The notes beneath the pieces were generated by a model. The model had not been told where the DNA came from, ran no database searches, and saw only the letters and a list, made by a program, of their open reading frames with translations. Shown here piece by piece: positions 3,762 through 29,424 of a stretch of DNA of 64,000 nt (position 1 is the stretch's first letter; every line of letters begins with the position of its first letter). This DNA comes from an uncultured Nitrospiraceae bacterium. GTDB taxonomy: Bacteria; Nitrospirota; Nitrospiria; Nitrospirales; Nitrospiraceae. The stretch spans positions 2,080,001-2,144,000 of the forward strand of contig CAWJWJ010000002.1 of the NCBI GenBank assembly GCA_963846575.1. The letters are read 5' to 3'. A program made the translations under genes and the position numbers.

Positions 3762-3837
3762 GCCGAGGTAGCTCAGTTGGTAGAGCACAGCCCTGAAAAG
3801 GCTGGTGTCGACAGTTCGATTCTGTCCCTCGGCACCA
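3762..3837 (+). tRNA. tRNA-Phe(GAA)
   Basis: GCCGAGG/CCTCGGC stem, ACCA end, anticodon arm CAGCC-CTGAAAA-GGCTG. Confidence 0.97.
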
Positions 3838-5005
3838 CAAATCGCGCACTTAGAGATTGTTCTACGTAGGATGGTGGCACCTCAGTGGCAGTAAGTGGCA
3901 CCTCAGAGGCATTTACACCATGGAGGAGAGCATCACTGAACGACTCCAACCGAGTGACCGCATCGCGCAATCGACCGTCCCAATTGTGAATGTGATACTT
4001 CGCTGAACCAGGAAGCGGCTCGCCTTTGAGGGTCTGAATCACAGCATAGTCCACACCACATTGCATCAGCCAGGTGGCGAAGGTGTGTCGCAGATCGTGG
4101 AAGTGCAGATCATAAATCCCGGCTCGCTCACATGTTTTCATCCAACTATGCTTGAAGGAATTCCCATTCTTCCATTGTCCAAAGAATCGCCCGCCAATCC
4201 GTGATAGTCCTCCGAACAGCGCTTCGTAAGCCAAGCCATTAAGAGGAATCGTTTTAGGAACCCCCTTGATCTTCGTGCGGCCCGGCGCCGGCGCCATCCA
4301 CCACCCGTCTCCCCTCTGCATCAGCCATTCTTCATGAGTCTCAATGAGCTTGTTCTCGCGCAAACCAATTTGGAGCGCCGCCATGATGAGACGCCATACT
4401 TGTGGCGAGGCAGCGGCCCTAAGTTTCAATAGTTCCCATCCTTCCAGCACGCGCTCACGTTTCACGTACTCAGGCACCGGAAGCCGCTTGAGCCGATTCT
4501 TATCCAGCCGATCCATGTCCACAGCCAGATTGAGCACGGCCATTAATACCGCACATTCCCGCTCGATCGTTCCAGCCGCGACCGGTCGACGGTTATCTGC
4601 CGGACCCGTAAGATCCGCACGACGTTTTTCCAAATAGGTCAATCCGTCCTCAAGGCGAATCTCAGTAAGTATTTTCTGTCCGAAATAGGGAATGATGTGC
4701 TTCGTCAGAATGAGCTCATTTCGACCGTCATTTGTTGGCCGCTTCGCTTTTAAATACTGCAGGTAGATTGGAATGAAAGCCGAAAAGGTGATGTCCGGCT
4801 GGTCAGCGAAGTGAGTCGTTTGAGTGGGTAAATGTACCGGTTGCGCCGTGTTGGCGTGTATAGCGGTGATGATTTGAAGGGCAGCTTCCCGTTCCTGGTC
4901 AATGGAAAGGTTGTATCCAAGGACAGGCCTATAACGAGCACCACGATACCAATATGTGAGAACCGAACGAGTCTTCCCGGAGGTTAGGATGCGCCGAATG
5001 TTCAT
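3773..5005 (-). CDS. Tyrosine integrase; C-terminus reads through att into tRNA-Phe
   Basis: GLRENKL, FHDLRHTFATWL, AKYHIH motifs; likely start at ATG 5005, just after the HTH gene stop. Confidence 0.9.
   Translation of the reverse strand: MNIRRILTSGKTRSVLTYWYRGARYRPVLGYNLSIDQEREAALQIITAIHANTAQPVHLPTQTTHFADQPDITFSAFIPIYLQYLKAKRPTNDGRNELILTKHIIPYFGQKILTEIRLEDGLTYLEKRRADLTGPADNRRPVAAGTIERECAVLMAVLNLAVDMDRLDKNRLKRLPVPEYVKRERVLEGWELLKLRAAASPQVWRLIMAALQIGLRENKLIETHEEWLMQRGDGWWMAPAPGRTKIKGVPKTIPLNGLAYEALFGGLSRIGGRFFGQWKNGNSFKHSWMKTCERAGIYDLHFHDLRHTFATWLMQCGVDYAVIQTLKGEPLPGSAKYHIHNWDGRLRDAVTRLESFSDALLHGVNASEVPLTATEVPPSYVEQSLSARFVVPRDRIELSTPAFSGLCSTN
3791..3843 (+). repeat. attL core, 53 bp (3' half of tRNA-Phe plus 6 bp)
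   Basis: CCCTGAAAAGGCTGGTGTCGACAGTTCGATTCTGTCCCTCGGCACCACAAATC, identical to 29076-29128. Confidence 0.95.
3874..3906 (+). repeat. GTGGCACCTCAG direct repeat, putative integrase arm-type sites
   Basis: Copies at 3874-3885 and 3895-3906, plus AGTGGCA at 3884; same motif at 28962-28981 near attR. Confidence 0.6.
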
Positions 5006-5009
5006 GGCG

Positions 5010-5276
5010 TTACCTATGACGAGACAGTATAAAAAGTGGATTCCGATGGTAAACGTTGGCTGGACCGACGTCAACTGGCGCAGGAGACAGATCCCCGTGC
5101 CTGTTGCTGTTCACCTCCTGTCCCTCGGAGCGCATTCGAACCCACTTTTCCAAGTCTTCCTTCACGAACATCAGACGATGTCCATAGCGAACACGGGGAA
5201 TGTCAACACGTTGGTACAGTGTTCGTTTTGTGAGCCGCAAGAACTGAGCAGCTTCTTCGATGGTAAGAAGCGTCAT
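5010..5276 (-). CDS. Excisionase-like HTH DNA-binding protein
   Basis: LLTIEEAAQFLRLTKRTLY..IPRVRYGHRLMFVKEDLEKW; AGGAG RBS; directly upstream of int. Confidence 0.85.
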   Translation of the reverse strand: MTLLTIEEAAQFLRLTKRTLYQRVDIPRVRYGHRLMFVKEDLEKWVRMRSEGQEVNSNRHGDLSPAPVDVGPANVYHRNPLFILSRHR

Positions 5277-5519
5277 ACCTTCTCCTATCTACGCAGACAA
5301 TGAAGCCGAAGCATATTGGCTCTCAACTGGTCTGATTCAACCGGAAGTCTATCGACATCCATTCCCCCCCATTGAAGCGCCCGCCGTTACGCCAGCTTGG
5401 GACGAAGATCGAGCCCCCATCGGGTGCGACCCGTGGCCGGCGGAGCAGGGGGTCAGGCCTTCCCGTCTGTTCGTCCAGGCCTGCCCGCTGCGAGAGCCTC
5501 GTGCCGCCTCCTTCGTTAC

Positions 5520-5549
5520 GCCCCACCCTTGGATTGTGAAGGGTGGGGC
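5520..5549. other. Perfect 11-bp-stem hairpin upstream of radC-like gene
   Basis: GCCCCACCCTT-GGATTGTG-AAGGGTGGGGC. Confidence 0.55.
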
Positions 5550-5577
5550 TAGAACATAATTTCAGAAGGAGGCGGAC

Positions 5578-6082
5578 ATGTCCGTTGATAGTTCTCTCGG
5601 TTCCTCGAACGCTGGACGGCCACTGAGCCCGACAGCCCGCTACGGCGTGCCTCGGTACCGTGTCACGCTTGTGCGCGAGGGCTGTGCCATTCCCGCGACG
5701 GAGTCCCTCACGACGTCGGAGGGCGCCGCGCAGCTCCTGTGTCCCCTGTTCGCCGGATTGGACCGGGAGCAGTTCCTGGTCTGCGGCCTCGACGCCAAAC
5801 ATCGACTCATTGGGATCAATGTCGTCTCCACGGGCTCGCTCACCTTGGCCATTGTCCACCCTCGTGAAGTCTTCAAACCGCTGATCCTGATGAATGCCGG
5901 GGCCTGGATTTGTGCGCACAACCACCCCTCTGGCGACATCACGCCCAGTCCCGGAAGATCGCGTCCTGACCACACGGCTGCGCGAAGCAGCTGATCTGTT
6001 CGGCATTCCGCTGCTGGACCATCTCATCTTCGCTGACGACCGCTACTACAGCTTCGCCGACCAGGGCTGGCCCGGCGCCTAG
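5578..6082 (+). pseudogene. radC: RadC-like JAB-domain protein, +1 frameshift near 5950
   Basis: DREQF..LDAKHR..VHPREVFK..AHNHPSGDITPS, then PEDRVLT..GIPLLDHLI..YYSFAD in the shifted frame. Confidence 0.85.
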
Positions 6083-6251
6083 CGGAGCAGCCGCAACACC
6101 CAGGCCGCTCCGGCGGCTACCAATGCGAGACCGATCGCCGCCGTGCCCCAGGCGACCAGGTCGGTGGCCAACGCGTTCCCGATGTTTTGAATCTGTTGCG
6201 CCGTCATCCGTGCACTCCTTTGTCCGTGCCATTCTCATCCTGCCCTGTGCT

Positions 6252-6296: not shown

Positions 6297-6509
6297 CTAG
6301 CCCACAATCGCGCGCACGCGCTTAAAGGCGTAAATCGCCAATGCCACGCCGATCAGGGCCGTGGCCCACAGGAGCAGATCGGCCCGCACGGTGGCCACAT
6401 CCGCCGACACCGGAAACAACTGCGCCTGCGACAGCGCCGGGACGCCCAGGGCGAACACGAACGCCATGAGCAATCCCCCAAGCCCTTTGACCCAACCCCA
6501 TCCCTTCAT
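6297..6509 (-). CDS. Inovirus major coat protein (pVIII)-like
   Basis: 70 aa: signal peptide ending SQA, ~41-aa mature part with acidic N-term, one TM helix and basic C-term (FKRVR); AGGAGG RBS. Confidence 0.8.
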   Translation of the reverse strand: MKGWGWVKGLGGLLMAFVFALGVPALSQAQLFPVSADVATVRADLLLWATALIGVALAIYAFKRVRAIVG

Positions 6510-6600: not shown

Positions 6601-6705
6601 TCAGTGCTGAGGCAGAATCAGTTTGATAATCAGACCGACGGCAAACCCGCCGAGCCAGAAGATCGCCGTGAAGTAAGTCATCATCTCAATCGCCTGCGGG
6701 TCCAT
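6601..6705 (-). CDS. 34-aa single-TM peptide (pVII/pIX-like); not in ORF track
   Basis: MDPQAIEMMTYFTAIFWLGGFAVGLIIKLILPQH; AAGGAG RBS; overlaps the Zot 3' end. Confidence 0.6.
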   Translation of the reverse strand: MDPQAIEMMTYFTAIFWLGGFAVGLIIKLILPQH

Positions 6706-7690
6706 AAAACACTCCTTCTCCGATCAGACGCATCGACCCCTCCTCGTAGACTTCCGACACGACGACGCCGTAGCGTCCAGTAATCTGAGCGGCCGTGAGG
6801 ATTTCGCCACTGTCCAACAAGTACCGCCACCCTTGACGGTTCGCCGAGGAGCCGGCGCCGCCAAGAATACGCACTGGGCGCTTCGGAACTGACGGTGTGG
6901 CAGCCGAAGTAGCAGACGCACCCAAGGGAGTCATGAGACTACCCGCCATCGACGCAGAAGCCGGCAAGAGAGTCCCCGTCGCGGTGACTCCAGTCGCCGG
7001 AACTCCCTTCGTGCTGCTTAATGACGACCAGGGGCGCCAAACCATGAGGGTGAGAGCAAACAGCCCTGCGGCAATGCCGATCGCCACCCGCGCCGACTTG
7101 AAGACGGTATGGCTGCGTTTCTCTTCCCTGATCGCCGCCGACGCATAGCTGGAATAGTAGGCGTAGATCGCCGGCGAGTAGGTCCCGACAAAAGCTCGGA
7201 TGGTTTCGTGGTCTTCGGGGTTCCCGCGTACCTTGCCCTGATACTTTTTCGCGAGACCCACAAAGGCCAGCTTGCGAAACTTCACCGTGGCTTCAATCAA
7301 TCGCGTCACGCCTTGCGACATCTGCCGAAAATCCTGACTCATGAGCAGAATATCCACGCCGTAATGCCGATGGGTTTCGAGCCAACGGAGGAGCCCCGGC
7401 TCGACTTTCTGCATGGACCGAAAGACGGTCTGGGCTTCGTCGATGATGACGGCCGAGCCGGGTTCGACATGTGGAAAGGCCTGCAGGACTTCCACGGAGT
7501 CTTTCCAGATCGTGATCTGTTGTTGGAGGGTCTCGAGTTCGATGCCGGTGAAGAGCGCCAGTCGATCCAGATAGATGCCATCGACGGCGATGTAGAGTCG
7601 CCGGCCTTGCCGCACCCAGGGCAAGAATTTCTCGCAGATCGCGTGATAGGACTTGCCCGAGCCCGGCACGCCTTCATACAGTTCGATCAT
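6686..7690 (-). CDS. Zot-family / pI-like morphogenesis ATPase
   Basis: Walker A GVPGSGKS, Walker B IIDEAQ, HRHYGVDILLMSQ, C-proximal TM helix; ATG 7690 coupled to the upstream stop. Confidence 0.92.
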   Translation of the reverse strand: MIELYEGVPGSGKSYHAICEKFLPWVRQGRRLYIAVDGIYLDRLALFTGIELETLQQQITIWKDSVEVLQAFPHVEPGSAVIIDEAQTVFRSMQKVEPGLLRWLETHRHYGVDILLMSQDFRQMSQGVTRLIEATVKFRKLAFVGLAKKYQGKVRGNPEDHETIRAFVGTYSPAIYAYYSSYASAAIREEKRSHTVFKSARVAIGIAAGLFALTLMVWRPWSSLSSTKGVPATGVTATGTLLPASASMAGSLMTPLGASATSAATPSVPKRPVRILGGAGSSANRQGWRYLLDSGEILTAAQITGRYGVVVSEVYEEGSMRLIGEGVFYGPAGD

Positions 7691-7773
7691 CGAAGACTCC
7701 TCAGATACACCCAGATCCACAGCGCCAGAATTACCGTCCACGCATAGGCCCAGCCCATCACGATGGTGTTCAT
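7687..7773 (-). CDS. 28-aa single-TM peptide
   Basis: MNTIVMGWAYAWTVILALWIWVYLRSLR; ATGA overlaps with both neighbours. Confidence 0.6.
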   Translation of the reverse strand: MNTIVMGWAYAWTVILALWIWVYLRSLR

Positions 7774-8045
7774 GAGCCCCACCGGACGAATGGAATGGTT
7801 TGGAGCATGAATCGCGTCCCCATGGCGCTCGCCACGATGGCCAGCGCCTGACTCATGCCCGTCGCGCCCAGCACCCAGGCGTATTGATCCGGAATCACCG
7901 GCAGGGTGAGGCCTGCCGTGCCAAGGGTCGCGAGCGTGCTGTCCGCCACGGAGAGCACGGAATCCCAGATGCCCAACCCCCAATCGGTGAGCGAAAAGAA
8001 GAACTCCTGCAGCCAGCAATAGATCAGGGTCAGAATGGCGGTCAT
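7770..8045 (-). CDS. pVI-like minor coat membrane protein (DUF2523-like)
   Basis: 91-aa hydrophobic protein ending ..ALAIVASAMGTRFMLQTIPFVRWGS, lying between pIII-like and Zot genes. Confidence 0.7.
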   Translation of the reverse strand: MTAILTLIYCWLQEFFFSLTDWGLGIWDSVLSVADSTLATLGTAGLTLPVIPDQYAWVLGATGMSQALAIVASAMGTRFMLQTIPFVRWGS

Positions 8046-9308
8046 GTGGTCTGGCCTCCTCCCACGAAGATGATGCGGTACGCGGCGAAGGAGGCAATGG
8101 CGATCACGAGCGTGCGGAGCACCGTGAAGAACCAGGCCCATTGATTGAAATCCACGTGCTGACTGCCGAAGAAGGCGGAGGGCAGCGCAATCACCGGCAA
8201 GGTTGAGGGCCAGGTCAGGGACTTGAGGAGATTCAGCGTACTGAGCAGTCCGCTCGTGGCCCAGATGGTTTGATGGGCTTGGAGGACGGTTCCGAAGGTC
8301 CGATTCTCATGTGCCCCGGCCGTACAGGATGTGGTGGCCTGTGTTTCTTCCTGTTGCGTCGTCGAGCCGTCGGGATTCTGGGTCGTCGTCGTGGTGGTCG
8401 TCGTGCTTTGCTGCTGGGTGTTCTGCTGCGGCGTACTGGCCGGAGGCGGGACGTTGTCGACGACGATGATATCCCCGGCAGGCACCGGCTTCGGTTTGAC
8501 CGTGGTCGGCATCTCACTCGGCGAAACCGGCTGCGAGACGGTGTTGTCCGCCGGTTGCGTCGTGCCCGTCGTCCCGACGGGATTCGTATGGGCTTCGATG
8601 GACTTCGGATCATTCGCTGGTAGTGCCTGACACATAGTTGGCCGCCTGCTGCTGAGTCGGCGGGGTGGAGGCGTCTTGCAACGGAGCCGGTTCGCCCGGA
8701 ATGCCTTTTCGGTGGCAGACATACAGACTGTGTCCGCCCACTGGCGGGCCGTTGACGAAGAAATTGCCGGAGAAGTACACGGCCGTGCTGACGCTGTGAA
8801 AGGGTCCGACCATCCAATCATGCTGATACTCTGAATCGACCGCACAGAGCGGGACATTGGTCGTGCTGAACTGAATGCTCGCGTTGGGATAACTGGGATT
8901 GCCGGGGGTATTGGTCCCGAGGCCCGGAAAGGTCTGGGTGCCGGCATTGCTGCTGGACACTTGCCATCCGCCCGGCGTCGAGGCTGCCGACTTGATGGCC
9001 GACAGGTCTGATGGTGAGTAATACATCTGGGCCAGCACTAAACCGGCCCCCACACCGAGTGCCGCCCAGCCGACTGGACCGGCGACCATGCGCACGGCCA
9101 ACGAGGCGGCCGAGGGAGCCACTGCTGCCGAGGCCACCTGACTCGCCATGGCGGACCGTTGTGCGGCCAGATAGGCAATCCGTTCGGCTTGGGCGACCAC
9201 GCGCGCATAGTGGGTCGTCTGCGCCACGGATTCACCCGGGGCGATGCACAGGGACACGAGCACTGTCCAGATGAGCCCGAGATACCCTGTCAACGAGATC
9301 AGCTTCAT
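8042..9308 (-). pseudogene. pIII-like adsorption protein, +1 frameshift near 8626
   Basis: Signal peptide (ORF 8610-9308); removing one G joins ..ANYVS to ALPANDPK.., a Pro/Thr/Gln linker and a C-terminal TM anchor (..LVIAIASFAAYRIIF). Confidence 0.75.
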
Positions 9309-9379
9309 ATCCGTCCGACTCCGAGGCCCAGGAGGAAGGCCAGTAACAAGACCGCCACGAGAATAATGGTGAGATCCAC
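9305..9379 (-). CDS. 24-aa single-TM peptide (pVII/pIX-like)
   Basis: GTG start with GGGAGGA RBS; MDLTIILVAVLLLAFLLGLGVGRI; stop overlaps the pIII ATG. Confidence 0.55.
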   Translation of the reverse strand: MDLTIILVAVLLLAFLLGLGVGRI

Positions 9380-9399: not shown

Positions 9400-9663
9400 T
9401 TATTTCAAGACTTCCAACCCGTACAGGTCGAAGAAGACCCGTCCGGTCTGTTCGAACTTCCGGACTTCGATCGAGACTTTCGCTTGCTTCCCCTCGGCTT
9501 GCTTGCAGGCCTCGATCAAGGGCATCTGATCGTCCGGAATCCCCAATCGAAGCACCCCCGGATCTCGGCCCTTCACATAGAGATCCACCGATCGGTAGAC
9601 TTTCCCTTCCCGACTTCTCCGCTCCACATAGCCCTGCACCGCCCCCTCCGCTTTGACTTGCAT
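9400..9663 (-). CDS. ssDNA-binding protein (pV)-like
   Basis: 87-aa beta-rich basic protein (SREGKVYRSVDLYV) downstream of Rep; AGGAGG RBS. Confidence 0.65.
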   Translation of the reverse strand: MQVKAEGAVQGYVERRSREGKVYRSVDLYVKGRDPGVLRLGIPDDQMPLIEACKQAEGKQAKVSIEVRKFEQTGRVFFDLYGLEVLK

Positions 9664-9682: not shown

Positions 9683-9883
9683 GTGAGTTACATTCGGATC
9701 AGCCAAGCGCCTGACCCACACGCCCCGGCCTTCCGACCGGGCTTTTGGAATGAAGCAGAATTCCGAATCGCATTCCCGACAGCTCAGATACAGGGCACCC
9801 TGTTTCCACTTGCACCGACATCCTCTCGCGCCACATCCCGGACACATACGGTGCCACCCTCCGTCATGAAACTCTAAGGACAT
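9683..9883 (-). CDS. Small Cys-rich protein (CPGC..CREC); 3' end uncertain
   Basis: Start overlaps the Rep 3' end; frame has no stop until 9305, so the true end is unclear. Confidence 0.4.
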
Positions 9884-10856
9884 ACGGCGTCCCTCTCCTC
9901 CGTTCCTTCAGCAGGGCGTAGTGCTTCTGTTTCCATTTCTGGGTGCCGGCATAGATCAACTCCTTCAGGAACTGATCACCTCGGCAGGCCACCACCACGG
10001 CCAGCATCGAGGCAACGGATTGGGCGAGCCAGGCGGCCACGTCGTCCAGCCGTTGCTGAATGCGCTCGACCACGAGCCGGCAGCGCTTGAAGCCTTCGGT
10101 CAGGGCCTGCCACCATCCCAACAGCGGCGCCCGGTATTTTTCGTACGATTCGGCCTCTCGCGTGGTCTCTCGGAAATCGACATAGGAGCGCAAGACGCCC
10201 ACCATAAAGGCCCGCCAGTCTTCGCTATCCAGCGTCAGGAGGGCTTTCGCGCAAGCCTGAGCCCGATCCTGTTTAAATTCCATTTCCCACCGGACGCCGT
10301 AGGCGGCCGCGTCTTCCCGTTTTTTGGCCTGGAGTTCCAGCCGTTTGTCATAGACCCGCAGCATGCTTTGGCTTTCCCGGCTGCCGAAGTAGAGGGTTTC
10401 TCCGGTCCGAATGCCGTCACGAGGATTGGAGGCCTGGATCACTTTGAATTGCTTGGACCGGCTGACGACTTGTCCGGCCTCGACGGCCTGCCGGACGGTT
10501 TCAACTGCGACCGTGGCCTCCCGGTCGTCCAGGGCCACGTCCGTCCGAGTCACATGGCCTTTTTGAGCGAAGATCCACGCGAGGACCGTTTTCAGCTTGT
10601 TCTCATCCCACTGGGAGATAATTCCGGCGGAGAGATCCACATGGACTTCCTTCGGACTGCGAGGGGCACCCGTCCCCAGTTTCCCGACGCCGGTCTTGCC
10701 CTGCGTCATGAGCTTCGCCACGGGATAGCCTCGAAAGCCGGTCTCACTCTGGAACCAGTCGCCCCCAATCGTCTTGATCACCTCGTCCACGTCAGCCTTC
10801 GGGAGTGTGAACGCCAGCCAATCGATGGTCTGAGTGAACCCTCCTGGACCTGTCAT
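9864..10856 (-). CDS. Rolling-circle replication initiator, Rep_trans family
   Basis: IDWLAFT, VTRTDVALD, GETLYFGSRES, LRVYDKRLE, RWEME motifs. Confidence 0.92.
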   Translation of the reverse strand: MTGPGGFTQTIDWLAFTLPKADVDEVIKTIGGDWFQSETGFRGYPVAKLMTQGKTGVGKLGTGAPRSPKEVHVDLSAGIISQWDENKLKTVLAWIFAQKGHVTRTDVALDDREATVAVETVRQAVEAGQVVSRSKQFKVIQASNPRDGIRTGETLYFGSRESQSMLRVYDKRLELQAKKREDAAAYGVRWEMEFKQDRAQACAKALLTLDSEDWRAFMVGVLRSYVDFRETTREAESYEKYRAPLLGWWQALTEGFKRCRLVVERIQQRLDDVAAWLAQSVASMLAVVVACRGDQFLKELIYAGTQKWKQKHYALLKERRRGTPYVLRVS

Positions 10857-11140
10857 TTCTTCCCCCTTGCCTTCTTGGCGATAGACGCCCCCGTCTTACC
10901 AAGTCGGGGGCTGGTCGGCTGCGCGCGCCGCCGGCTGACGCCGCCGGTCGTGCGCAGGCCGCCCGCCAAGCCGAGTTCGGTGAGTCCGTTGAGCCGCATC
11001 GCTTCGCGGACCTTTTCGAGATCAAAAAAGTACATTTTGCAAAACCGCTCATAGGGAATACGGCCGGTGCGATAGGCGCGTCGTATGGTCGAGGGATGCA
11101 CCGCAAACGTGTCGGCTAATTCCTTCGTCGTGAGTAACAT
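10853..11140 (-). CDS. HTH (Xis/MerR-like) DNA-binding protein
   Basis: LLTTKELADTFAVHPSTIRRAYRTGRIP..FDLEKV; AGGAG RBS; coupled to Rep. Confidence 0.85.
   Translation of the reverse strand: MLLTTKELADTFAVHPSTIRRAYRTGRIPYERFCKMYFFDLEKVREAMRLNGLTELGLAGGLRTTGGVSRRRAQPTSPRLGKTGASIAKKARGKK
10887..10911 (-). promoter_or_regulatory. Putative double-strand origin / nick-site hairpin
   Basis: Minus strand GCCCCCG-ACTTGGTAAGA-CGGGGGC, 30 bp upstream of the Rep start. Confidence 0.65.
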
Positions 11141-11200
11141 GCGTTGAATCGCTCCTTGTTCAACATGGTGAGGACACTACGTGAGTTGAAGCTCGTGGGG

Positions 11201-11260
11201 AACTATGCGTATGCATGCGTATGTGCGCTTATATGCGCTTTGGTGTGCTCTGGTGAGCAC
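11201..11260. repeat. Phased 10-bp imperfect repeats upstream of the HTH-Rep operon
   Basis: AACTATGCGT ATGCATGCGT ATGTGCGCTT ATATGCGCTT TGGTGTGCTC TGGTGAGCAC. Confidence 0.55.
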
Positions 11261-12023
11261 CGATCATCCTGAAGTGTTACATCCCGCCCAGATTCAGGAC
11301 GCATTTAGCGGGATGTCATGCAGAAAAGACCAATAGGCGTGGGTAATAGAAACGATCAGTTTGGGATATGGAAGAGCGGATATCTTCACGAATGGACTGG
11401 AATCAGTCGCAATGAACCATCAATGGACCGCAATGGAGGGTACGTCTCTGGTGAAAGAACCGAAGGGAAATAATGGCTCAGGAGAATTAACGACAGAGGC
11501 TAGGGCAAGTTGGCTCTAGCCGAGGCTGCTGAAGGCACACGTTGATGGCATCGCCTCATGTTTTGGAAGGGCGAGACATGTGCGTCGAGTGTGCTTCTTT
11601 TCCCTAGGAGAGCGACCTGGGGGCGGATGGCCGATCATATGCAGACATTGCAAGCGGGTAAACCGGGTGCGGATCTCTGACTGCAACCGGCTACCTGGAT
11701 GAGCCAGGCCTTCGCACTGTCGGAACTGCTATGCAAGCTATGCGTCAACATGCGCGATATCAGTGCTGAGAGAGGTGTGAACGGCAGGCCAGCATCACGC
11801 GCCCTGTGGCGGTGGGGAGGGTCTTGTCGGCGATTGGTCATGGCTGGGGAGCCTAAGACGTCAGCGTTCCGAGTATCCGGTTTCTTCGCGAAACGTGCAT
11901 CACACCGATCACGATCTCAGGGATTTTCCTAGTTGATCAAGAACGATCGTCGAAGCAGCATAAAATTACTAGCTAAAGGCGTCTGCTGTTTAATGGCAAT
12001 CATAATAGACATGGAATGGAGTG

Positions 12024-14083: not shown

Positions 14084-14130
14084 AGAAAGCCGGCAACCAG
14101 TGGACACAAGTGGCTATCCCAACTGAGCCT

Positions 14131-19929: not shown

Positions 19930-19940
19930 GCAGCCGTAAT

Positions 19941-19984
19941 GACAGAGCGGGGAGCGTAAGTTGGTAGGCGCTCCTCGCTTTGTC
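19941..19984 (+). terminator. 16-bp-stem hairpin after the DUF1264 gene
   Basis: GACAGAGCGGGGAGCG / CGCTCCTCGCTTTGTC (two G-U pairs); no clear U-tract. Confidence 0.5.
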
Positions 19985-20079
19985 CATCGATCAAGATTCT
20001 CACGTTTGAGCCCTCGTAAAGATTGTTCACCAGTCGTTTATGTTGTGCATGCTGAGAATGAATCTTTCACCATCACATC

Positions 20080-20823
20080 GTGAAGGTAGCTATAAACCTA
20101 GAACGGCATCTGGAAACCTTTGGTCGCAATCGACTGGGTCATAGACCAGTTCGTCAGTGGGCAGTCTTGTTGATCTTGGTTGGTCTGGGAGCCCTGACCA
20201 CAAGCGCACAGGCAGAATGGTCGGCTATCACCGAGGCAAAATCACTTTACACAACCGATGCATTCCAGTTTTCCAATGCGAGGACGATTGCGACTGAGTG
20301 AAGATCCAACCTAACCCGCTGGCGTGGACATCGGGAAGTCGGAGGATGTTATTTTTCAGCCGGCGCTTGAACTGGTTCGGTCGTCATCCTCCTTCTTGGG
20401 TCCCAATGAGGTGGCTTTTAAAGCAGAAGGTTCCATTTATACAAACAATCCGATTTTAACCATGGCGACTACCGTGGTCAATTCAAGCAGTCGCTGACGC
20501 CTCAGACATCGCTGTTAGTCCGATACCGCTATCTGCCGAACCTGTTTCTAGGGCCAAATTTTGAGCATCGCACTGGGGAACGCCTCCTTGAGCAGGAACG
20601 GGTGACATCCCATCATTGGCGGAACTTTACGGGCGACCTGATGGGGGACACCCATGAAGGTCGGCAAGATGAAACCAATCAAGGGATAGCCGAGCTCCTG
20701 TATCACCTGACAGAAGCAGCAGGCCTTACGTTAGGATTTCAGCACACCCAGCGGACCTCGACGAATGCCCTCAGGGGATTTAATGACACCATCGTAGCTG
20801 TGGGAGGCCAGTATAGATTTTAA
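20080..20823 (+). pseudogene. Decayed outer-membrane beta-barrel gene
   Basis: Signal peptide (..AQAEW), fragments in several frames with stops, C-terminal ..VGGQYRF barrel signature. Confidence 0.6.
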
Positions 20824-21469
20824 CTCGGACCAGACACGAAGCATGGGAAGAAATAACAAATTAAGCCACTATCAGTGCTAACCGCTGTTTCGCGGCGCAA
20901 GCTTTTTTCTCGGGCACTACAGGTTATGGTGGCAATGCCATTTGCTCCAATTCTATCTATTCCTGGGTGTGGAGGCACCAGGCTATCCCGGGTTACGAGG
21001 GCCTGACACTTGATGCTACGCAAGGTCGGTCCTCGACATCTGAAGACTCCCATGGACCGGCTGACGACCTGAATTACACCTAACGATCAATTCCTCGTTC
21101 ACTCGCATAACCACATCCCTCAGATCGCATAATCTTTGGTATCTACGGGTTGAAGGCGCTGCCCTGAGCCCCTCACGTTCACTTTCTTGCCACGCATGTT
21201 CTGCCGACAAGCGCCATGAAATCGGAGGACATGGTAATGATCACCGTGCTCCCCTGAAATCTCTCATCACCTCAATTACGGATGTGGCTTATGATGTGTA
21301 AGGGGGATCGGACTTGTGGTGGTGCGACCTCGGACGGCACCGAAGGTTCGGCTGAACTAGGGAATGATATAGCTTCTCACGCATGGCGTGTGTAGCAATA
21401 TAAGTGGCATGCAAGAGACCCCGTCTGGGAATTGCTCCCCTCTTAGCCATTTAGAAAGCGAGGTTCATC

Positions 21470-22264
21470 ATGCGATACGAGGCACAACTGGCTTTTTTCA
21501 TCATAATAGCATTGGCCTTTCCGGCATGTGCGGCACAAGTTGAGCCAAAGGTCACACCAGCGGGTGACGCCAAAACCATGAAAAAGTCAGCTCTTGAAAT
21601 GGGCGCGCATGCTCTTCAAACACATGAGCCGATTGAACAGTTCGGTGTCTATCTAGTGGGATTTCACGCTTACAAACATGACCCGGCTCAGCAAATGACT
21701 GCTCATCATTTTTGCAGGCCGATCAATGAAGACCTGGCTCAATGTGTGCTGTTTGACAGCAATACAGCACAGGCGAACCTCAATGGCATTGAGTACATTA
21801 TTTCCGAGAAACTCTACGAGCAGTTGCCCCCAGCCGAACGGCCCTACTGGCATCCCCATAACCATGAGATTCTGTCAGGCACTTTGATCGCGCCGGGGCT
21901 TGCGGACGCGGCTGAACATGCCTTCCTTAAAATGTTTATGAACAGCTACGGGAAAACCTGGCATACCTGGAGGACCGGCATGTTCGGCCTGCCGCAAGAC
22001 TGGCTTCCACTGGGAGATCCTCATTTAGCCTGGTCGTTCAACCACGAAGGCGAGGCGAAGGCTGGGCTCATTGAAAAGAGGGATCAGGAGATGCAAATGA
22101 ACTCTGCCGAGAAGCATCGCCAACGGCAAGATTTTGTGAACCTGGCGCACCCACAGGAAGGTGTGAACGCCATCTCAACTCAGTTTCCTGGTCCGATTCG
22201 CTCGATCCCCGGCGTCATCGACAAGAGCTCCCAGCCGGGAAACGATCAAGGACATGGTAAATAA
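21470..22264 (+). CDS. OBAP/DUF1264-family protein
   Basis: YLVGFH, AHHFC, QCVLFD, LNGIEYIISE, YWHPHNHE, SYGKTWHTW. Confidence 0.85.
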   Translation: MRYEAQLAFFIIIALAFPACAAQVEPKVTPAGDAKTMKKSALEMGAHALQTHEPIEQFGVYLVGFHAYKHDPAQQMTAHHFCRPINEDLAQCVLFDSNTAQANLNGIEYIISEKLYEQLPPAERPYWHPHNHEILSGTLIAPGLADAAEHAFLKMFMNSYGKTWHTWRTGMFGLPQDWLPLGDPHLAWSFNHEGEAKAGLIEKRDQEMQMNSAEKHRQRQDFVNLAHPQEGVNAISTQFPGPIRSIPGVIDKSSQPGNDQGHGK

Positions 22265-22301
22265 CGCATCGCGCCGAACCAGGCCAACGGCAACTTAATC
22301 G

Positions 22302-23876
22302 GTGATACGCCAAGCCGAGGGACATCAAAGAAGGACTCAAGCGATGAGCCGGGCCGCCCTGCGGACTAGCCATAAAATTCTCGAAGGGTCTAAACGGCGT
22401 CCAAACTCCTTTGAGAGTCGTTCCCGAGAGGCACTGCCTCTTAATTCATTTTCTCTAGTGTTAGTACTCAGTCGAGGTAGCCAAGCGACGGGCGTGCTTT
22501 CTGCTGTATTTATCTTGACGATGACTCTCCAGGCCTTGGGTCAAGAGCTTCTTCAAAGAGAGACCGAGAAAGGTGGGAAGGCCCCGGAGTTTAAATACAA
22601 TCTCGGTTTGTACAAGCCAGACTATGGCATTTATGACGAGATCCTGGAGCGAACGGAACCTGGGCCCCAGTCATTGCGCGAAGCAGTCAATATGCCGACG
22701 TGGCTGATTGTGGGGGGTCAACATCGCACGCGCTATGAAACACTGGATGGACGGTGGCGAGCCGGTGAACTGGGGAGCGACCAGCAGATCGCTCAGCGCA
22801 CGCGGCTCTTTCTCGGCATCCAGGACATTCTTGATCCTCTTCGCCTGAACGTCGAATTACAAGATTCTCGAGCACAGTTGACGGATTCAGGCTCATTCAT
22901 GACGCAACATCATGTCAATAAGACCGATGTTCAGCAACTTCATCTGGACTTGTTTTCGACTAACTTTTTGGGGACGGAGCAACCCACCGTGCTCAGCGTC
23001 GGGCGCATAAACATGGACCTAGGTCGCCGTCGCTGGGTGGCCCGGAACGAATTCCGTAACACGACTCAAGCTTTTGATGGGGTACATTGGCACCTGGGAG
23101 ATGAAAAAAAATGGCACGTACGAGCCTTTCTGACGGAGCCCGTCCAAATTCTCCCTGAGCGAGTAGATAAGGTGGCTCCTGAGCAACCAACGACATTGTG
23201 GGGCCTATATCTCGAATCACGACAACTCTCTTGGCTCCACATGGCATTTCACTACTTCGGGCATCGCAGCGACGGTCCCCATCGCGACTTTGAAATGCTG
23301 GGAGCTATGTTTTTCAGGCCTGGAGGCGAAGGTAAGTTCGAATATGAGGTCGAGTCGTCGTATCAGTTTGGCGATATCGGTTCTCCCGGAGGATTTGAAC
23401 ACTTTCAACATGGGGAAATCGGATACACCTTCGCTGCGAAGTGGAAACCGCATGTCTTGCTAAGGTTCGATTATGCCAGCGGCGGACTGGACACCTTATA
23501 CGGCGCACGATCTTTTGAGTTAATGCCGACGGGAATCTTTCAGCCTTTCCAGCGTAGCAACATCCTATCGCCCGGATACCGGATCATGATCAGACCGAAA
23601 GAACAAATCACGCTGTTTACACAATATCGCGCGTGGTGGCTCGCCAACGACACAAAACCTTGGGTTGAGACTGGACTGCATGACCCGAGTGGGCAGTCCG
23701 GTAATTTTTTAGGACATACCGTCGAGGTGCGCGCACGCTGGGGCATTGTTGAGAATTTCTTTCTGCAAGGTGGCTATGTCCATTTCTCTTTCGGGGACTA
23801 TCCACGAAATGTACCAGGTGGGCCAAGTGGGAACCATTCCGACTACGCCTACATTTCGACAGAATTTATGTTCTAA
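22302..23876 (+). CDS. Alginate-export-family outer-membrane porin (start uncertain)
   Basis: RTRYE, QRTRL, ELQDSR, GRRRWVARNEFRNTTQAFDG, terminal Phe. Confidence 0.8.
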   Translation: MIRQAEGHQRRTQAMSRAALRTSHKILEGSKRRPNSFESRSREALPLNSFSLVLVLSRGSQATGVLSAVFILTMTLQALGQELLQRETEKGGKAPEFKYNLGLYKPDYGIYDEILERTEPGPQSLREAVNMPTWLIVGGQHRTRYETLDGRWRAGELGSDQQIAQRTRLFLGIQDILDPLRLNVELQDSRAQLTDSGSFMTQHHVNKTDVQQLHLDLFSTNFLGTEQPTVLSVGRINMDLGRRRWVARNEFRNTTQAFDGVHWHLGDEKKWHVRAFLTEPVQILPERVDKVAPEQPTTLWGLYLESRQLSWLHMAFHYFGHRSDGPHRDFEMLGAMFFRPGGEGKFEYEVESSYQFGDIGSPGGFEHFQHGEIGYTFAAKWKPHVLLRFDYASGGLDTLYGARSFELMPTGIFQPFQRSNILSPGYRIMIRPKEQITLFTQYRAWWLANDTKPWVETGLHDPSGQSGNFLGHTVEVRARWGIVENFFLQGGYVHFSFGDYPRNVPGGPSGNHSDYAYISTEFMF

Positions 23877-24504
23877 GAAGGCGGCGTATCGTTTGTTGGG
23901 CAGGCCGTTGCCGGCCATCTGTCCTCCAGCACCAGTATGAGTGAGGGGCTTCGTCAGGGTAGGCCACTGAAAAACGTTCAGTGAGCCAAAAGCAGCCTGT
24001 CGTCAAGAGCTTCCGAATAGACATCGTTGGTATTTGAGAACAGCTAATAATGTCGCCGGCAGATGGTCTGGTGTTAAGCACGATCGTAGGTAGGATGAGA
24101 CTATGTCACTGACGCTAGCCTGCTTTCACAAAACCTTCAAATGGAACTCCCCACGGACTTAGATCGGCAATGCAAAACGCCCTTGAATCCCGTTGGGGAT
24201 TCGAATTCCGCCCGGTGCCGAATGCATGCAGTTTTCCAAACCTGCAAAAGAAGCAACCTTGGAAGACGCCGATGAAGAGGAAGGCAATAATCTACCATTT
24301 GCTGAGGCTAAACTGACTGAGTAAAGGGGATGACCGCATTTTCGAGTGCTGGACCCGTACTGAATTTTTCATAGATTCACAAACCTCTCGAATCTATCAA
24401 TTCTCTCCGAAGCGTGTAAGCTTCTACTGGTTCGAATAGAATAACGCTGGGGAACACTTATGCTATGAAATATAGAGAAAAAGTCACCGCCAGAGCCGGT
24501 TGAG

Positions 24505-24786
24505 CTACGATGTTCGATCATACCCCGCGATTTTGACCAATTTATTGTACACACCGAAGAGCAGGAACGGGGCTACCCACTGGCCGACAAAGAGACCGTC
24601 TTCTCTTTTTCCCTGTGAGTGGAAAACAATTGAAACGCCGATCGCGGCAAACGAGGCCCATAGCCACAAGTCAGAAGGCAACTTCGCCGTCTGCTTCTCG
24701 ATAGCGTGGGCAACTTTGCCTTCGCCGTGTTCCTGAGCTTCCTGATCATCGCTGTTTTGTTTTGCATTTGCGATTCTCTCTGCCAT
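24505..24786 (-). CDS. Small membrane protein
   Basis: EKQTAKLPSDLWLWA..GLFVGQWVAPFLLFGVYNKLVK; purine-rich RBS. Confidence 0.7.
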   Translation of the reverse strand: MAERIANAKQNSDDQEAQEHGEGKVAHAIEKQTAKLPSDLWLWASFAAIGVSIVFHSQGKREDGLFVGQWVAPFLLFGVYNKLVKIAGYDRTS

Positions 24787-25717
24787 CTTCCAACCCCCCT
24801 TACTACAATAAGGTTTATCTCACGTGCATGACCATCGTTACAGTCATTACTTAAAGAGATAACTGGCAAACTCCCTAGTCCTTTAAACATGATCAGCCGC
24901 TCTTGCGATAAGTCAGCGCGGGCGGCTATGTCTATAATGAGGGAGTGGTTAATCGCCTTTATGTGGCCCATCATGGTTTCAATGAAGCACAAAATTCGAC
25001 CTCTCGAAGTTAGAGCAGCAATGGACTCCATATGACGCTCTGCATCTTGCATGGTCGCAACCGATTCAGTTGCGATGCGATGGCCGAGTCGCAGGCCCTC
25101 ATCGAAGCCTGACGCGTGGGCTACAATCAGCGTCGACCTCATAGCTCACTCGGGCACCTGACCTCGAACGAGTTCGTCGCATAACGTCAGGGCCAACAGA
25201 TCGTGAAGACGTCATCTGCTCCGGTTAGGGCGCGTCTCAGAACGGGGCCAACGTCACTGCCGAAAGGTCTCCTCGAGTTCTGTCTCGGAATGAGGGGGCG
25301 TACAGTTCGAGCAGGCGCTGAAGACTAGCTCTCTAGAGGTTTTCCAGGTATAAGGGCAGGGCTGAGATGGCTCAGGGTCTTTGCCTGACGATCTTGCGCA
25401 CTGCGCGTTCTGTGACGCGTGGTGTTGAAACAGGCCGGCCATTGGTGCGGGAAGCGCGCAAACGGTCAGAAGGTATCCAGGTCCTCCGCGACACACCGGC
25501 AGCTGTCGTGAGTACAACATCCATATGCCGAACGGCAACGGATTCGAGGTCATGACTACATTTCTTCGCCAACTGCCCGTGCCGCAGCATGTTGCCATCT
25601 CGAGGCAATCGGGGACCGGTGGCCTGCTCAGTGCTGCGAAGCTGTTGAGCGCCACTCTCATTGTACCGAAACCTGTCAGCCTGAATGATCGCATTGGGTC
25701 GTGGAGACGGACTCGAG

Positions 25718-27748
25718 ATGTTGTCATTTGCTAACTTCACGCTACCAGACCTTACCGAAGCCCTGAGCAGGTTACGTCAGATGGGCCTTGGCGCACGCAG
25801 CATGGAAGAGACAGCGGATCGCATGGTCCGCTATGTGTATGAGAGCTTTGGGAACACGGAGACCGGCACGCGCTCCTGCCCTCTCGTCCGACTGTTCGTC
25901 ACGCGGCCCTATGGCACGCTGGAGGCAGGGCTTCAGTCGGCTGCCCGCAAGATGCTGGGTGAACGACCTGAGTCGCCGTCGCATAAATGCCTTGTGTTGC
26001 TCGGGACGGCGGGGGATGAGGCAGACTGGAATGATCGACACCGCTCCCATGGTCATCGGATATTTCCGCTGGTCAGTGAGCAGATCGTGTCGGATCTGCC
26101 CATGATTTCGCAGCTCATTACCCAGATGGGGATCGATGTGCGGTGTATGCTGGATCCCACGCCCTCTACGCTGCTGATAGCGGAGCAGAAAACCTATAAT
26201 GTCTTTCATGTCCCTGTGGCCCTTGAAAGTCCCTTCATCCCGGCGCAACAGAGCTTTGTCATCCGGTATCAAATCAAATCCGTGCTCGGCTTTGGCGGAC
26301 TCCTGCCTTCCGGGGAACTCTTCACGCTGATTCTCTTTAGCCGCACTTTGATATCGCAGGAGACGGCCGTATTGTTTAAGCCCTGCGCCCTCGCTGCCAA
26401 GGCAGCGCTCATGCACTTTGATAGCGACGATCGTGTCTTTGCCCGATCAGCGCAGCCGCCCGTGGCCACCTTAGGACCCTCGGCGCTCAGGCCCGACCAT
26501 GGGCGATCGGAATCGTTGGTTCTCGAGCAATTAATGGATCTCTATGAGCGCACGGTCCACGAGCAGGCGTCGCAGTTGAACCGGGCGTTAGAGGGGGCCC
26601 AGGCCCTGGCAACTGAATTGAATCGGACTGAACAACGGGAACGAAAAAGGCTCGCAATGGAGTTGCACGATCATCTCCAGCAGCTGTTGGTGCTGGGAAG
26701 ATTGAAACTCAGTCAAGGAAAGCGTGCGCTTGAAAGCACTTCTGCTGGGCCTAGGATTGTGGAAGAACTCGATGAGGTGCTCACGCAGGCTTTGACGTAC
26801 ACTCGCACCTTGGTTGCCGAACTGAGTCCACCGGTGCTTCTGGAACATGGCCTGCTCGCAGGGCTCACCTGGCTGGGCGAACAGATGCGCCAGCATCATA
26901 TCGCGGTCACCGTCGAGTGCACGCTTGAAGAGCTGCGTCTGCCTGAGGAACACGCGGTGCTCCTTTTTCAATCGGTGCGAGAGTTACTGCTTAATGCGGC
27001 CAAACACGCCGGTTCCAGTCACGCGACGGTGAGCGTTAACCACCGGAACGGTATGCTGCATATCGCAGTAGCGGATCAGGGGAAAGGCTTCGATCCGTCA
27101 CACGTGGCCAATTCGCCCTCGTCGGCCCATCTCTCCTCCAAATTCGGCCTTTTTTCAATCCGTGAGCGCATGCGGGCGTTAGGAGGTCGGTTCGAAATCG
27201 TCTCGGCAGTCGGCAAGGGAACGACCGGAGTTCTTGAACTGCCCGTTGCAGTACAGGCTCTGCCCCCCACGCCAGACTCTGTACTAGCTACAGGGGAACC
27301 TAACAACACTTCCCTAGCCAAAGGCGGTCTTCGATCACAGCCTCAGCTGTTCGGTCATGTGCGGGAGACTCTGGTGCGTGTGCTCTTGGTGGACGACCAC
27401 GCCATGATGCGGCAAGGGCTGAGATCAGTCTTAGAAGCCTATAGTGACGTCCATATCGTGGGAGAGGCCCAGAACGGGGAAGAAGCCGTGACCCTGGTGC
27501 ATAAACTAACTCCATCCGTTGTCATTATGGACATCAATATGCCCAAGCTCAATGGGATCGAGGCGACGGCACAGATCAAGTCTCAATTCCCGCACATTGC
27601 GGTGATTGGGTTATCCGTCAATGCAGAGGGCCCGAACCAAACGGCAATGCTGCAGGCTGGCGCCACCCGGCTGATAACTAAAGAGGCCGCTGTGGAGGAG
27701 CTGTATCGCGCCATTCAAGCTTCCATCGCAGCAACAGAATCTCAGTGA
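25718..27748 (+). CDS. Hybrid sensor kinase: unassigned N-terminal domain + HisKA_3 + HATPase + REC
   Basis: ERKRLAMELHD, ELLLNAAKH, DQGKGF, FGLFSIRER, VLLVDDH..MDINMP. Confidence 0.88.
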   Translation: MLSFANFTLPDLTEALSRLRQMGLGARSMEETADRMVRYVYESFGNTETGTRSCPLVRLFVTRPYGTLEAGLQSAARKMLGERPESPSHKCLVLLGTAGDEADWNDRHRSHGHRIFPLVSEQIVSDLPMISQLITQMGIDVRCMLDPTPSTLLIAEQKTYNVFHVPVALESPFIPAQQSFVIRYQIKSVLGFGGLLPSGELFTLILFSRTLISQETAVLFKPCALAAKAALMHFDSDDRVFARSAQPPVATLGPSALRPDHGRSESLVLEQLMDLYERTVHEQASQLNRALEGAQALATELNRTEQRERKRLAMELHDHLQQLLVLGRLKLSQGKRALESTSAGPRIVEELDEVLTQALTYTRTLVAELSPPVLLEHGLLAGLTWLGEQMRQHHIAVTVECTLEELRLPEEHAVLLFQSVRELLLNAAKHAGSSHATVSVNHRNGMLHIAVADQGKGFDPSHVANSPSSAHLSSKFGLFSIRERMRALGGRFEIVSAVGKGTTGVLELPVAVQALPPTPDSVLATGEPNNTSLAKGGLRSQPQLFGHVRETLVRVLLVDDHAMMRQGLRSVLEAYSDVHIVGEAQNGEEAVTLVHKLTPSVVIMDINMPKLNGIEATAQIKSQFPHIAVIGLSVNAEGPNQTAMLQAGATRLITKEAAVEELYRAIQASIAATESQ

Positions 27749-28617
27749 GGAATACCAGTCAGCAGGTACGTTCTTGCCACGCCACCTCGAACCTCGGCAA
27801 ACGAGGATTTGCGCGTGTAGGTGATTGTGCATTGAATATTGGCCCGGCATTGTTTTGTTTAGTTAACACGTTGAGCTTGGTGTTGATAGTTTTGTGGTAC
27901 CGGGAAGGATGTTTACCCTCGAAGGGCCTCGACCTTTCTATTTGGGATCACTCGATTCCTCCAAATCACGTTCAGTGACAAAACAAGATGGTAAATGCAG
28001 GTTGGCGAGCGCGCCCACCTCGGCGCGCGGCGATGCGAAAGCATTGATGATGGTCGCTGCATTCCACGCACGCGTTTTGAGGGAGATATGGTGACACTGG
28101 TTGTCCGGTGAAGACCAGCCGACATGCAAGTCACTATCTCCGTAAGCACCGTGATCGTCGATCAGCTTTGACCGACAGCGGGCTGATCGTCATGTAGAAG
28201 AGCGGGTCGATCATGACACTCTCGGGATTGGTTTAGGTGTCTATACCGCCGCCTGGCTAGGGCTCCCTGAGCGTAATGTCTGCTAACGCGCGTGGGGATT
28301 TTCTATCCCCCTCCGTATCGGTGTGGAGAAGATGATTGCCGGTGGTTGCAACGTAGATTTGAGTCTGTCGAGTAGGATCGTAGCCGCCGAGCACAAGGTT
28401 GATTGTGATCGGTTGTGTAGCGGCGACGCCGGTGCCACGAGGACGAGCGTCGTGAGACTTTTGGTACGAACCTGGATAGCTCTTCCGACAGAGTTGTCTC
28501 GAAGGAGGCCAATGTCAGTCCGATGATCACTCACAACCGGACGCGATGGAAGTGAGAGCGGGATGTAATTCCTTAGCAGTAAAGGGAGTCTGCTTCACGC
28601 TCGCGTCGGCAATTTGA

Positions 28618-28923
28618 TCAGGTCGAGACGAGGGTGGTTCGGTTTTGCACGATGTGCCTCGTGACCCTATCCGGAAAAGTTCGCTCGGCCAGCCGCAACT
28701 CATAGGCTTTCTGCAAGTTCATCCAAAATTCAGCCGTGGTATTGAAAACCCAGCCCAGACGCAGGGCCGTATTGCCCGTAGTGCCCCGTTGCCGCTTAAT
28801 AATTGCCGTAATCGGGTTTGCCGGCACCTCTAATGACTTAGCGAGTGTATTGGCGTTGATAGGAAGATTAGCCGCCTTCATGAACTCTTCCCCCAAAATT
28901 TCTCCGGAATGCACCGGCCGCAT
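28618..28923 (-). CDS. higA: HigA-family antitoxin (orphan)
   Basis: MRPVHSGEILGEEF..TALRL..TTAEFWMNLQKAYEL. Confidence 0.82.
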   Translation of the reverse strand: MRPVHSGEILGEEFMKAANLPINANTLAKSLEVPANPITAIIKRQRGTTGNTALRLGWVFNTTAEFWMNLQKAYELRLAERTFPDRVTRHIVQNRTTLVST

Positions 28924-29067
28924 GCCATTCTCCCTTCACCGATGGAAACCGACTTGAAGTTAGGTGCCACCAGTGGCACCTGCACCTGTAACCCTATGTA
29001 GTTTAAAGGCACACAATGTCATGATTTGCAACGCCGTTTCCCGCTATCATATTGATTTTCCACTGCT

Positions 29068-29424
29068 TTAGGCTCCCCTGAAAAGGCTGGTGTCGACAGT
29101 TCGATTCTGTCCCTCGGCACCACAAATCAACCGCCTACGTGAAGCGCCATTTTCCCACTGCCCATAGCTGTCCACGCTGGCCGATTCTTGGCTTTCAGCT
29201 TGCAGAACCTTCTCAAGTAGGAATGCTTCCAACCGTATCGCCGCATCGCGCAGGCGAGCCTGCCAGTTGTGAAGGTCGCCCTCCCCCATTCCATGCAAAC
29301 GATGGCCAAGTAGTTTCTCGATGACGGCGAAATCCGCACCGGCTTCAAGTAGCCAAGAGGCCGCGCTATGACGAAGGTCATGGAAGGTCAGGTCATGAGC
29401 GCCCGCAGGCCGACAGAGTGACAT
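29068..29424 (-). pseudogene. C-terminal remnant of a second tRNA-Phe-targeting integrase
   Basis: DLTFHDLRHSAASWL..LLGH..HNWQARLRDAAIRLE, paralogous to HNWDGRLRDAVTRLE of the 3773-5005 integrase. Confidence 0.85.
29076..29128 (+). repeat. attR core, 53 bp
   Basis: Exact copy of 3791-3843. Confidence 0.95.

Follow-up and report, generated by a model that had tools for sequence, protein, structure and literature searches.

Filamentous phages have no head to fill and can, in principle, carry DNA of any length. In the sections of the literature compared here (a scope that applies to every source cited below), natural filamentous phages stay under ∼18–20 kb and have few accessory genes. The stretch of 64,000 nucleotides analysed here, referred to as the window, comes from an uncultured Nitrospiraceae bacterium (contig CAWJWJ010000002.1, positions 2,080,001 to 2,144,000) and holds an integrated element that spans 25.3 kb between its attachment (att) sites, of which 7.4 kb are an inovirus-type core and 17.9 kb cargo. 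The element belongs to a family in the genus Nitrospira that seems to exploit this freedom of length, with cargo on the scale of operons that measures two to four times as much as the phage core. It works as an integrating inovirus would, with its accessory hotspot enlarged to the scale of an island, beyond the published sizes compared.

The Pf prophages of Pseudomonas (Pf4, Pf5 and Pf6; PMC7549136) share integration at tRNA genes, several integrase classes, Xis, pI/Zot, coat genes and accessory genes inside the att sites. Their att-delimited loci measure 7.9–17.9 kb, and accessory DNA adds 15–100% (PMC7549136). In contrast, 12 of the 17 distinct Nitrospira elements with both ends in hand exceed 20 kb; their cargo consists of whole operons and adds ∼70–370% to the core, their initiator is of the Rep_trans family and radC is a core gene. 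Filamentous prophages of Vibrio have the gene order Rep_trans, SSB (which binds single-stranded DNA), coat, pIII, Ace and Zot, as in the Nitrospira core. These prophages (CTX-I, PMC12715192; PMC11630473) likewise keep their accessory genes, many of them for defence, in a single hotspot, but they measure 6.0–13.3 kb (PMC11630473), their hotspot 1.9 ± 1.3 kb (PMC12715192), and they integrate by dif/Xer, whereas the Nitrospira elements have their own integrase, tRNA sites and a slot of 3–28 kb. Roux et al. 2019 (PMC6813254) describe cryptic inoviruses that share the pI marker and small transmembrane (TM) proteins; their genomes are given as 5–20 kb, although longer entries may exist in the length table. 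One Nitrospirae species is listed there (7,503 bp, Amplinoviridae Sf_3), and the sections compared do not describe the att-to-att extent or the cargo of the Nitrospira family. In IMG/VR the family core is represented by 13 trimmed pieces; inovirus catalogues trim to the core, and the true ends of such elements are therefore missed.

Dehalococcoides IME1 (10.64898/2026.09.15.751708) is likewise 20.9–28.1 kb long, integrates in the manner of a tRNA island by a tyrosine recombinase, and has a pI-like ATPase and small TM proteins. Its filamentous particles have been seen in virome fractions. The length of IME1 is conserved viral content, with 14 core groups, a primase-helicase, a resolvase and a proposed double-stranded genome (same source), in contrast with the Nitrospira arrangement of a 7.4-kb core of the single-stranded DNA (ssDNA) type, with rolling-circle Rep_trans, and variable host-benefit cargo that is unrelated between members. 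Integrative and mobilisable elements (IMEs) with a Rep_trans/MOB_T relaxase (PMC5714925) share the layout of integrase, xis, Rep_trans, origin hairpin and cargo, but lack the morphogenesis module that the Nitrospira elements keep complete and under selection. No closer system appears in the compared sections of 10.64898/2026.07.08.737213 or PMC13626063, and a search of the open literature (subscription papers aside) found no paper on the Nitrospira family or on inoviruses with such large cargo.

The window element is bounded by an exact 53-bp direct repeat (attL core 3791–3843, attR core 29076–29128, both on the plus strand). No other perfect repeat pair in the window is as long, and the repeat bears out the identical att cores proposed in the initial annotation. 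Its left copy is formed by the 3′ part of tRNA-Phe(gaa) (3762–3837, plus strand; ARAGORN and Rfam), the integration target. Arm repeats on the attL side (3868–3910) contain the motif GTGGCAC at 3874 and 3895, and an 11-nt word is also present in the attR arm. That right integrase arm, or P arm, is of the Phe class and fills the 144 bases inside attR (28932–29075); it is 89.5% and 77% identical to the matching arm of two relatives (G004b and G020b, where G-labels denote congener genomes, L-labels loci and G000 the genome of the window itself), whose integrases are 92% and 82% identical to that of the window and whose cargos are unrelated. Across the family, multi-member classes comprise 17 elements, and in 16 of them the attR arm agrees with the integrase class; in the G000 Arg element the agreement is weak. 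As the arm inside attR tracks the integrase class, core and cargo form one excisable unit. The initial annotation had named two observations that would tell against its reading. The first, an internal att site or terminator near 11.2–11.9 kb, is not borne out: no att copy lies within 11.1–28.9 kb, and a promoter and terminator scan of 10.8–12.1 kb gives signal at chance level. The second, the same cargo at this locus in relatives without the core, is not seen either, with no window cargo gene behind tRNA-Phe in any of the five congeners checked that have no core there.

The pI gene occurs in 20 of 38 other Nitrospira genomes, mostly at 84–93% identity, and the same query found none in 16 genomes from other families of the order. 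G000 has four core copies, at tRNA-Phe, Ala, Arg and Lys. Together with 29 of the 36 loci outside G000, picked for long contigs, they make up the 33 cores examined. Integration sites are tRNA-Phe, Lys(ttt), Lys(ctt), Arg(cct), Arg(tct), Ser(tga), Gly, Thr, Glu and Ala, and the recombination enzymes are either large serine recombinases or tyrosine integrases, the latter of several classes. Both att sites are present for 18 of the 33 cores, and the spans have a median of 25.3 kb: 12.8, 14.5, 16.6, 17.1, 19.5, 21.6, 21.6, 23.8, 25.3, 26.2, 29.2 (twice, one element), 29.9, 30.7, 32.0, 32.1, 33.2 and 35.1 kb, none of them core-sized (the 23.8-kb Glu span is based on a short att core, and G043 is counted by its cognate second att). 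A nineteenth element measures at least 22.8 kb and spans a contig break, and one metagenome element, L151, is only 10.6 kb. The claim that related cores would be found at other tRNA genes with other cargo is thus upheld, in 20 of 38 other genomes and with unlike cargo at nine or more tRNA sites. The family plan is a swappable integrase-Xis module, a conserved filamentous-phage core, one large cargo slot and a cognate right arm.

Movement is seen in a pair of elements in two host species. G004a and G016a are identical over 29.2 kb save for one internal mismatch, and the identity runs from tRNA-Lys to attR. In contrast, identity of the left flanks is 79% across 1.4 kb and 74% across 19.5 kb, and the right flanks show no relation to each other. 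Such identity from att to att between flanks at 74% means that the whole unit travels between species, in agreement with the proposal that the cargo-carrying element is the unit of transfer. In recombination of the lambda type the host supplies its own att half. The 3′ halves of the two attR sites differ by 2 nt, as expected if each host gave its own half at integration. There are two further pairs: between G006b and L145 the core is 98.2%, 3.5 kb of cargo 99.4% and the flank 85% identical, and G018a and L167 are 100% identical over 13.9 kb with different left contexts. A 6.4-kb piece of cargo next to the core is shared at 86.7% identity by elements at two different tRNA genes.

Read leftwards from 11140, and on the minus strand unless stated, the window core begins with a helix-turn-helix (HTH) regulator upstream of rep (10853–11140). 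Likeness to kin stops within ∼125 nt of this gene, the end of the conserved core. Next come a G+C-rich hairpin (10887–10911), the putative double-strand origin, in single copy, and the Rep_trans rolling-circle initiator (9864–10856; PF02486, E 3e-38), in which the RxD, LYFG, YxKxxE and WE motifs were read as given by PMC5714925. A pV-like SSB of 87 residues (9400–9663) has a predicted OB fold (model pLDDT 94; top PDB matches SSB/PriB), and is followed by a 24-residue, pVII/pIX-like TM peptide (9305–9379), a pIII/TspB-like adsorption protein in two frames, split near 8620 (8042–9308), and a pVI-like minor coat protein (7770–8045; phrog_306, Ace-like; PHROG 306/974). The pI/Zot morphogenesis ATPase (6686–7690; 334 residues) has a Walker A motif and one TM segment at about residue 199; its closest phage matches are inoviruses at 24–34% identity, and the identity first assigned to it is secured by hidden Markov model (PF05707, E 1e-29; phrog_197). 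Zot as a toxin was considered and dropped, as the protein is an assembly ATPase in its usual gene order. A 34-residue TM peptide (6601–6705), the pVIII-like major coat protein (6297–6509; 70 residues with signal peptide, one TM segment and basic C-terminus) and a 42-residue TM peptide (6079–6207; present in 33/33 cores) follow, the two peptides being minor coat candidates. All three tiny TM peptides are free of stops in 33/33 cores. On the plus strand lies a RadC-like JAB protein (5578–6082; PF04002), frameshifted near 5955, with a product of 138 residues against 167–173 in most kin. A long, conserved hairpin before radC (5500–5575; DNA fold and alignment) is present once in 33/33 cores. The Xis-like HTH_17 protein (5010–5276; profile searches) and a tyrosine integrase of the Phe class (3773–5074; PF00589; ∼405 residues from the first Met) complete the core. 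The integrase frame enters the tRNA gene across attL (3773–3900), which means that excision would alter its C-terminus.

The labels pIII and pVIII are based on position, hydropathy and language-model neighbours and have no alignment E-value. The pVIII-like protein falls in an ESM Atlas Phage_Coat_B cluster at 0.92, with the family on 11% of members, and has no match among PDB sequences; an intact 422-residue pIII homologue lies near TspB clusters, and the pIII fold model (pLDDT 32) is too poor for use. In the other genomes pIII is a single open reading frame (ORF) of 311–422 residues from the first Met in 29/29 cores. Of the phage-like core drawn at 3.8–11.1 kb in the initial annotation, every listed gene is found, but pIII is split in two frames and radC (5578–∼6082) had been overlooked. 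Among the features that identify an inovirus, the window element has pI with a TM segment, a small coat protein, pVI- and pVII/pIX-like proteins, and Rep with hairpin and SSB; an intact pIII is absent from this copy and present in the family, and the 25.3 kb of the window element lie outside the 5–20 kb of PMC6813254. Judged by sequence, the family has the gene content of an inovirus but not the size.

The virion genes are under purifying selection. The ratio of non-synonymous to synonymous change (dN/dS) is 0.03–0.08 for pVIII, pI, pVI, pIII, pV and Rep, with pVIII at 0.08 and pI at 0.03, and 0.10 for radC, in 22 cores with intact frames (the set omits the four G000 copies, the duplicate G016a, and G016d, G043, G047, G050, G052 and G011). 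Just upstream of rep, every element has a single G+C-rich hairpin that hardly varies within the otherwise variable HTH tail, and no second origin-like hairpin was found within the window element. Since the origin is single and no att lies inside, rolling-circle replication of an excised circle must traverse the cargo. The hairpin (23/25 nt) also precedes rep in three att-bounded G000 elements that have an integrase and a 50% identical Rep_trans, and neither pI nor coat genes (C2:129172–141055, C2:517588–527122 and C1:845914–852318, at tRNA-Thr, Arg(cct) and Val); it is therefore tied to Rep_trans. These three are candidate satellites or IMEs. For the hairpin before radC, position and orientation allow speculation about a packaging signal, a complementary-strand origin or a single-strand promoter.

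On this evidence, it is probable that the family consists of integrated inovirus-type elements whose core and cargo are excised, copied, extruded and re-integrated as one unit. Int and Xis would excise the entire att-to-att unit as one circle, of 25.3 kb in the window, a step that the anatomy of the element supports. Rep_trans would then nick the hairpin, the only origin, and replicate core, attP and cargo before it came round to the origin again, while pV would coat the strand. pI would extrude it in pVIII through a host secretin, with filament length set by the DNA; pIV is not encoded, and the host has two secretins. At a rise of 0.14–0.27 nm per base, 25 kb would give a filament of ∼3.5–7 µm. 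M13 phagemid systems can package up to 51,000 nt (10.1101/2024.02.27.582394). The unit would finally enter another Nitrospira species and integrate at its tRNA gene, an outcome that is seen for the family, and for which the simplest route would be extrusion of the entire circle within a filament of the element's own making. Integrase modules and cargo would be exchanged between co-resident copies, with relic arms left behind. A bolder proposal falls somewhat short of even likelihood: that the family packages ssDNA circles of 25–35 kb in filaments several micrometres long, is the main carrier of islands (cobalamin, metal resistance, surface glycans, defence) between Nitrospira species, also serves the pI-less integrase and Rep_trans elements that share the hairpin, and expresses radC from the incoming strand via a hairpin promoter.

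Several observations weigh against the scheme set out above as probable. The identical 29.2-kb pair includes G016, a 40-contig draft, and a shared-assembly artefact is possible. attR was not found for 14 of the 33 cores (eight at contig ends, four serine-recombinase elements at tRNA-Ala, and two with no attR in 46 and 80 kb). Relic integrase arms and truncated att cores of another class lie within the cargo, often by the true attR (G018b/L013, G004b/L004, G004a/L001 and G016b/L028). No excised circle or virion DNA is in evidence, with terminal repeats in 0 of the 13 IMG/VR contigs, all of them trimmed linear pieces of the core. Rep_trans proteins also act as conjugative relaxases, as in Tn916 and ICEBs1 (PMC5714925), and G018 holds VirB4 and a coupling protein. 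Finally, radC and pIII are broken in the window copy, and none of the four G000 copies has an undamaged core (pIII and radC are hit in the Phe copy, rep and pI in the Arg copy and several genes in the Lys copy, which lies at a contig end, while the Ala copy has a pIII deletion). Of 115 chromosomal genes, in comparison, 2 show frame changes; true decay and badly polished repeats look alike in these data. The broken pIII means that the window copy probably yields no infectious particles unaided. It is probably defective alone, and probably either moves only with pIII supplied in trans or is now grounded.

Unlikely, but the best placed of three alternatives, is a mobilisable island of the IME type, in which the whole unit excises, Rep_trans works on the hairpin as a relaxase of the MOB_T type and transfer is left to a conjugative element that happens to pass, the virion genes serving otherwise or packaging poorly. 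The integrase-xis-Rep_trans-hairpin layout without a type IV secretion system of its own fits this, as do the relaxase kinship of Rep_trans, the hairpin of the three pI-less G000 elements and the conjugation genes of G018; a MobT model matches weakly (50 bits against a cut-off of 600). The virion genes, however, are all kept, in order and under strong purifying selection, and a pV-type SSB lies between rep and the coat genes. VirB4 (PF03135) and coupling protein (PF02534) were not found in G000, in G004 and G016, the two hosts of the identical element, or in G020, and the hallmark of an integrative and conjugative element, its own type IV secretion system and coupling protein, is absent from the window ORFs scanned.

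Slightly less likely again is a grounded prophage, that is, a small inovirus that integrated and later accreted cargo between core and attR, the large forms staying unpackaged. Relic arms and nested att copies in the cargo do show that DNA was also added in place and that modules were swapped or nested; tandem arrays at tRNA-Lys, the decay of the window copy, the 10.6-kb L151 and the lower G+C of the cargo (0.548 against 0.612 in the core) point the same way. Accretion alone sits poorly with the 29.2-kb unit identical between flanks at 74%, with the 6.4-kb cargo beside the core at two different tRNA genes, with the intact, selected cores of most large elements and with the count of 0/18 core-sized bounded elements; of 30 metagenome loci tracked for 2–6.7 kb beyond the core, many of which have no left att for comparison, only 1 has an att copy. 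The least likely alternative, that the excised circle is borne by an unrelated vehicle (tailed-phage transduction, vesicles or transformation) and integrated by its own Int, with filaments incidental to cargo spread, can point to Int and attP sufficing after entry, to phage transduction of islands already in print and to sizes of 13–35 kb that would fit a tailed-phage head, but it leaves unexplained the complete, selected morphogenesis module attached in 33/33 cores, and the threefold span of lengths differs from head-size-limited satellites.

Nitrospira is a key genus of nitrifiers that oxidises nitrite; about half of its genomes have the core, and most genomes checked have no conjugation genes. 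Should the filament prove to be the vehicle, the family would form natural ssDNA virions of unusual size and offer genomic islands a way to spread outside cells and without lysis; it suggests that filamentous phages can ferry such islands. Intact copies occur in cultured Nitrospira, in which the claim can be put to a direct test. Junctions of arm, core and integrase in L144, L149, L167, L140, L162 and L163 were considered as attP and rejected; they look like tandem arrays, with non-cognate arms in the typed cases.

A scan of 168 cargo ORFs across the family found defence genes (restriction-modification, Hma, Thoeris-like, Sir2-HerA and IetAS) as well as RHS proteins, a cobalamin operon with TonB receptor, copper oxidases with RND efflux, a Wzm/Wzt glycosyltransferase cluster and chlorite dismutase, and no relaxase, VirB4 or tailed-phage families. 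The cobalamin genes (CbiC, D, G, CobO, CobQ/B and methylases), together with the TonB receptor and a NicO transporter, lie inside the att sites of the 33.2-kb G016d element (L031–L032). A 32.1-kb sister element in G000 (C2:1319431–1351509; L051–L052) carries RND efflux, multicopper oxidases, CopB and a P-type ATPase, and its rep and pI are frameshifted. The Wzm/Wzt cluster is the cargo of the G000 Lys element (L055, L056), which spans the end of C2 and the start of C1 and suggests that these contig ends join. One RHS cargo protein (L028:9655–17166) has 2,503 residues and SpvB/TcdB-like N-terminal domains, and recurs at 86.7% in an element at another tRNA gene. Core-gene trees are mostly open (11 of 19 forks) and are no firm gauge of module swapping, though one starred pair joins a Lys-B and an Arg element.

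In the window, the ∼18 kb described as metabolic cargo is indeed 17.9 kb of non-phage DNA, but is only partly metabolic and partly decayed. On the plus strand it comprises an MBL-fold/rhodanese protein with four YeeE/YedE sulfur-transport halves, the first seemingly interrupted (12021–15813); a YgaP-like membrane protein, a SoxB/5′-nucleotidase-like hydrolase, for which the SoxB model is the best match, yet below cut-off, and a DsrE-like protein (15976–19249); two DUF1264 proteins, EpsL-like outer-membrane gene fragments and an alginate-export-family porin (19417–23876); and a hybrid histidine kinase/response regulator (25685–27748). A HigA antitoxin on the minus strand (28618–28923; TIGR02607 above cut-off) adjoins the right arm and is found at the equivalent place in three Lys-class elements. 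The 14 ORFs scanned in the cargo (11141–29075) contain no conjugation or tailed-phage families, as first reported. The MBL-fold protein scores far under beta-lactamase cut-offs and was rejected as one, and with 0/7 cargo proteins matched by PADLOC at E 1e-10 a defence role was ruled out. As a block, the cargo is found in 0 of 38 congeners. Its sole recurring part is the 3.8-kb MBL-YeeE module, at 78–88% identity in three congeners (G024, G053 and G003) and at a second G000 site, where the 78% identical copy (C2:1309583–1313359) lies directly behind tRNA-Pro(tgg), outside the inovirus att pairs.

An integrase remnant (29127–29424, minus strand; PF00589) lies just outside attR and is not part of the unit; with a second (506–1614, at tRNA-Ser(tga)) it marks older elements at this tRNA cluster. 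Two tRNA genes are the sole matches in an Rfam scan of the window. The DNA right of tRNA-Phe is unlike in every congener, and window positions 33–52 kb have no DNA match in five congener genomes (E 1e-30). A [NiFe]-hydrogenase cluster with hyp maturation genes (35850–51393) lies to the right of attR and likewise matches nothing at the DNA level in five congeners whose genomes are complete or nearly so (E 1e-30). More distant pI relatives, at 45–55% identity, occur in L193–L199; in L197 pI is accompanied by a serine-recombinase-like gene, radC, Rep_trans and an HTH gene, which indicates that the layout reaches beyond this clade.

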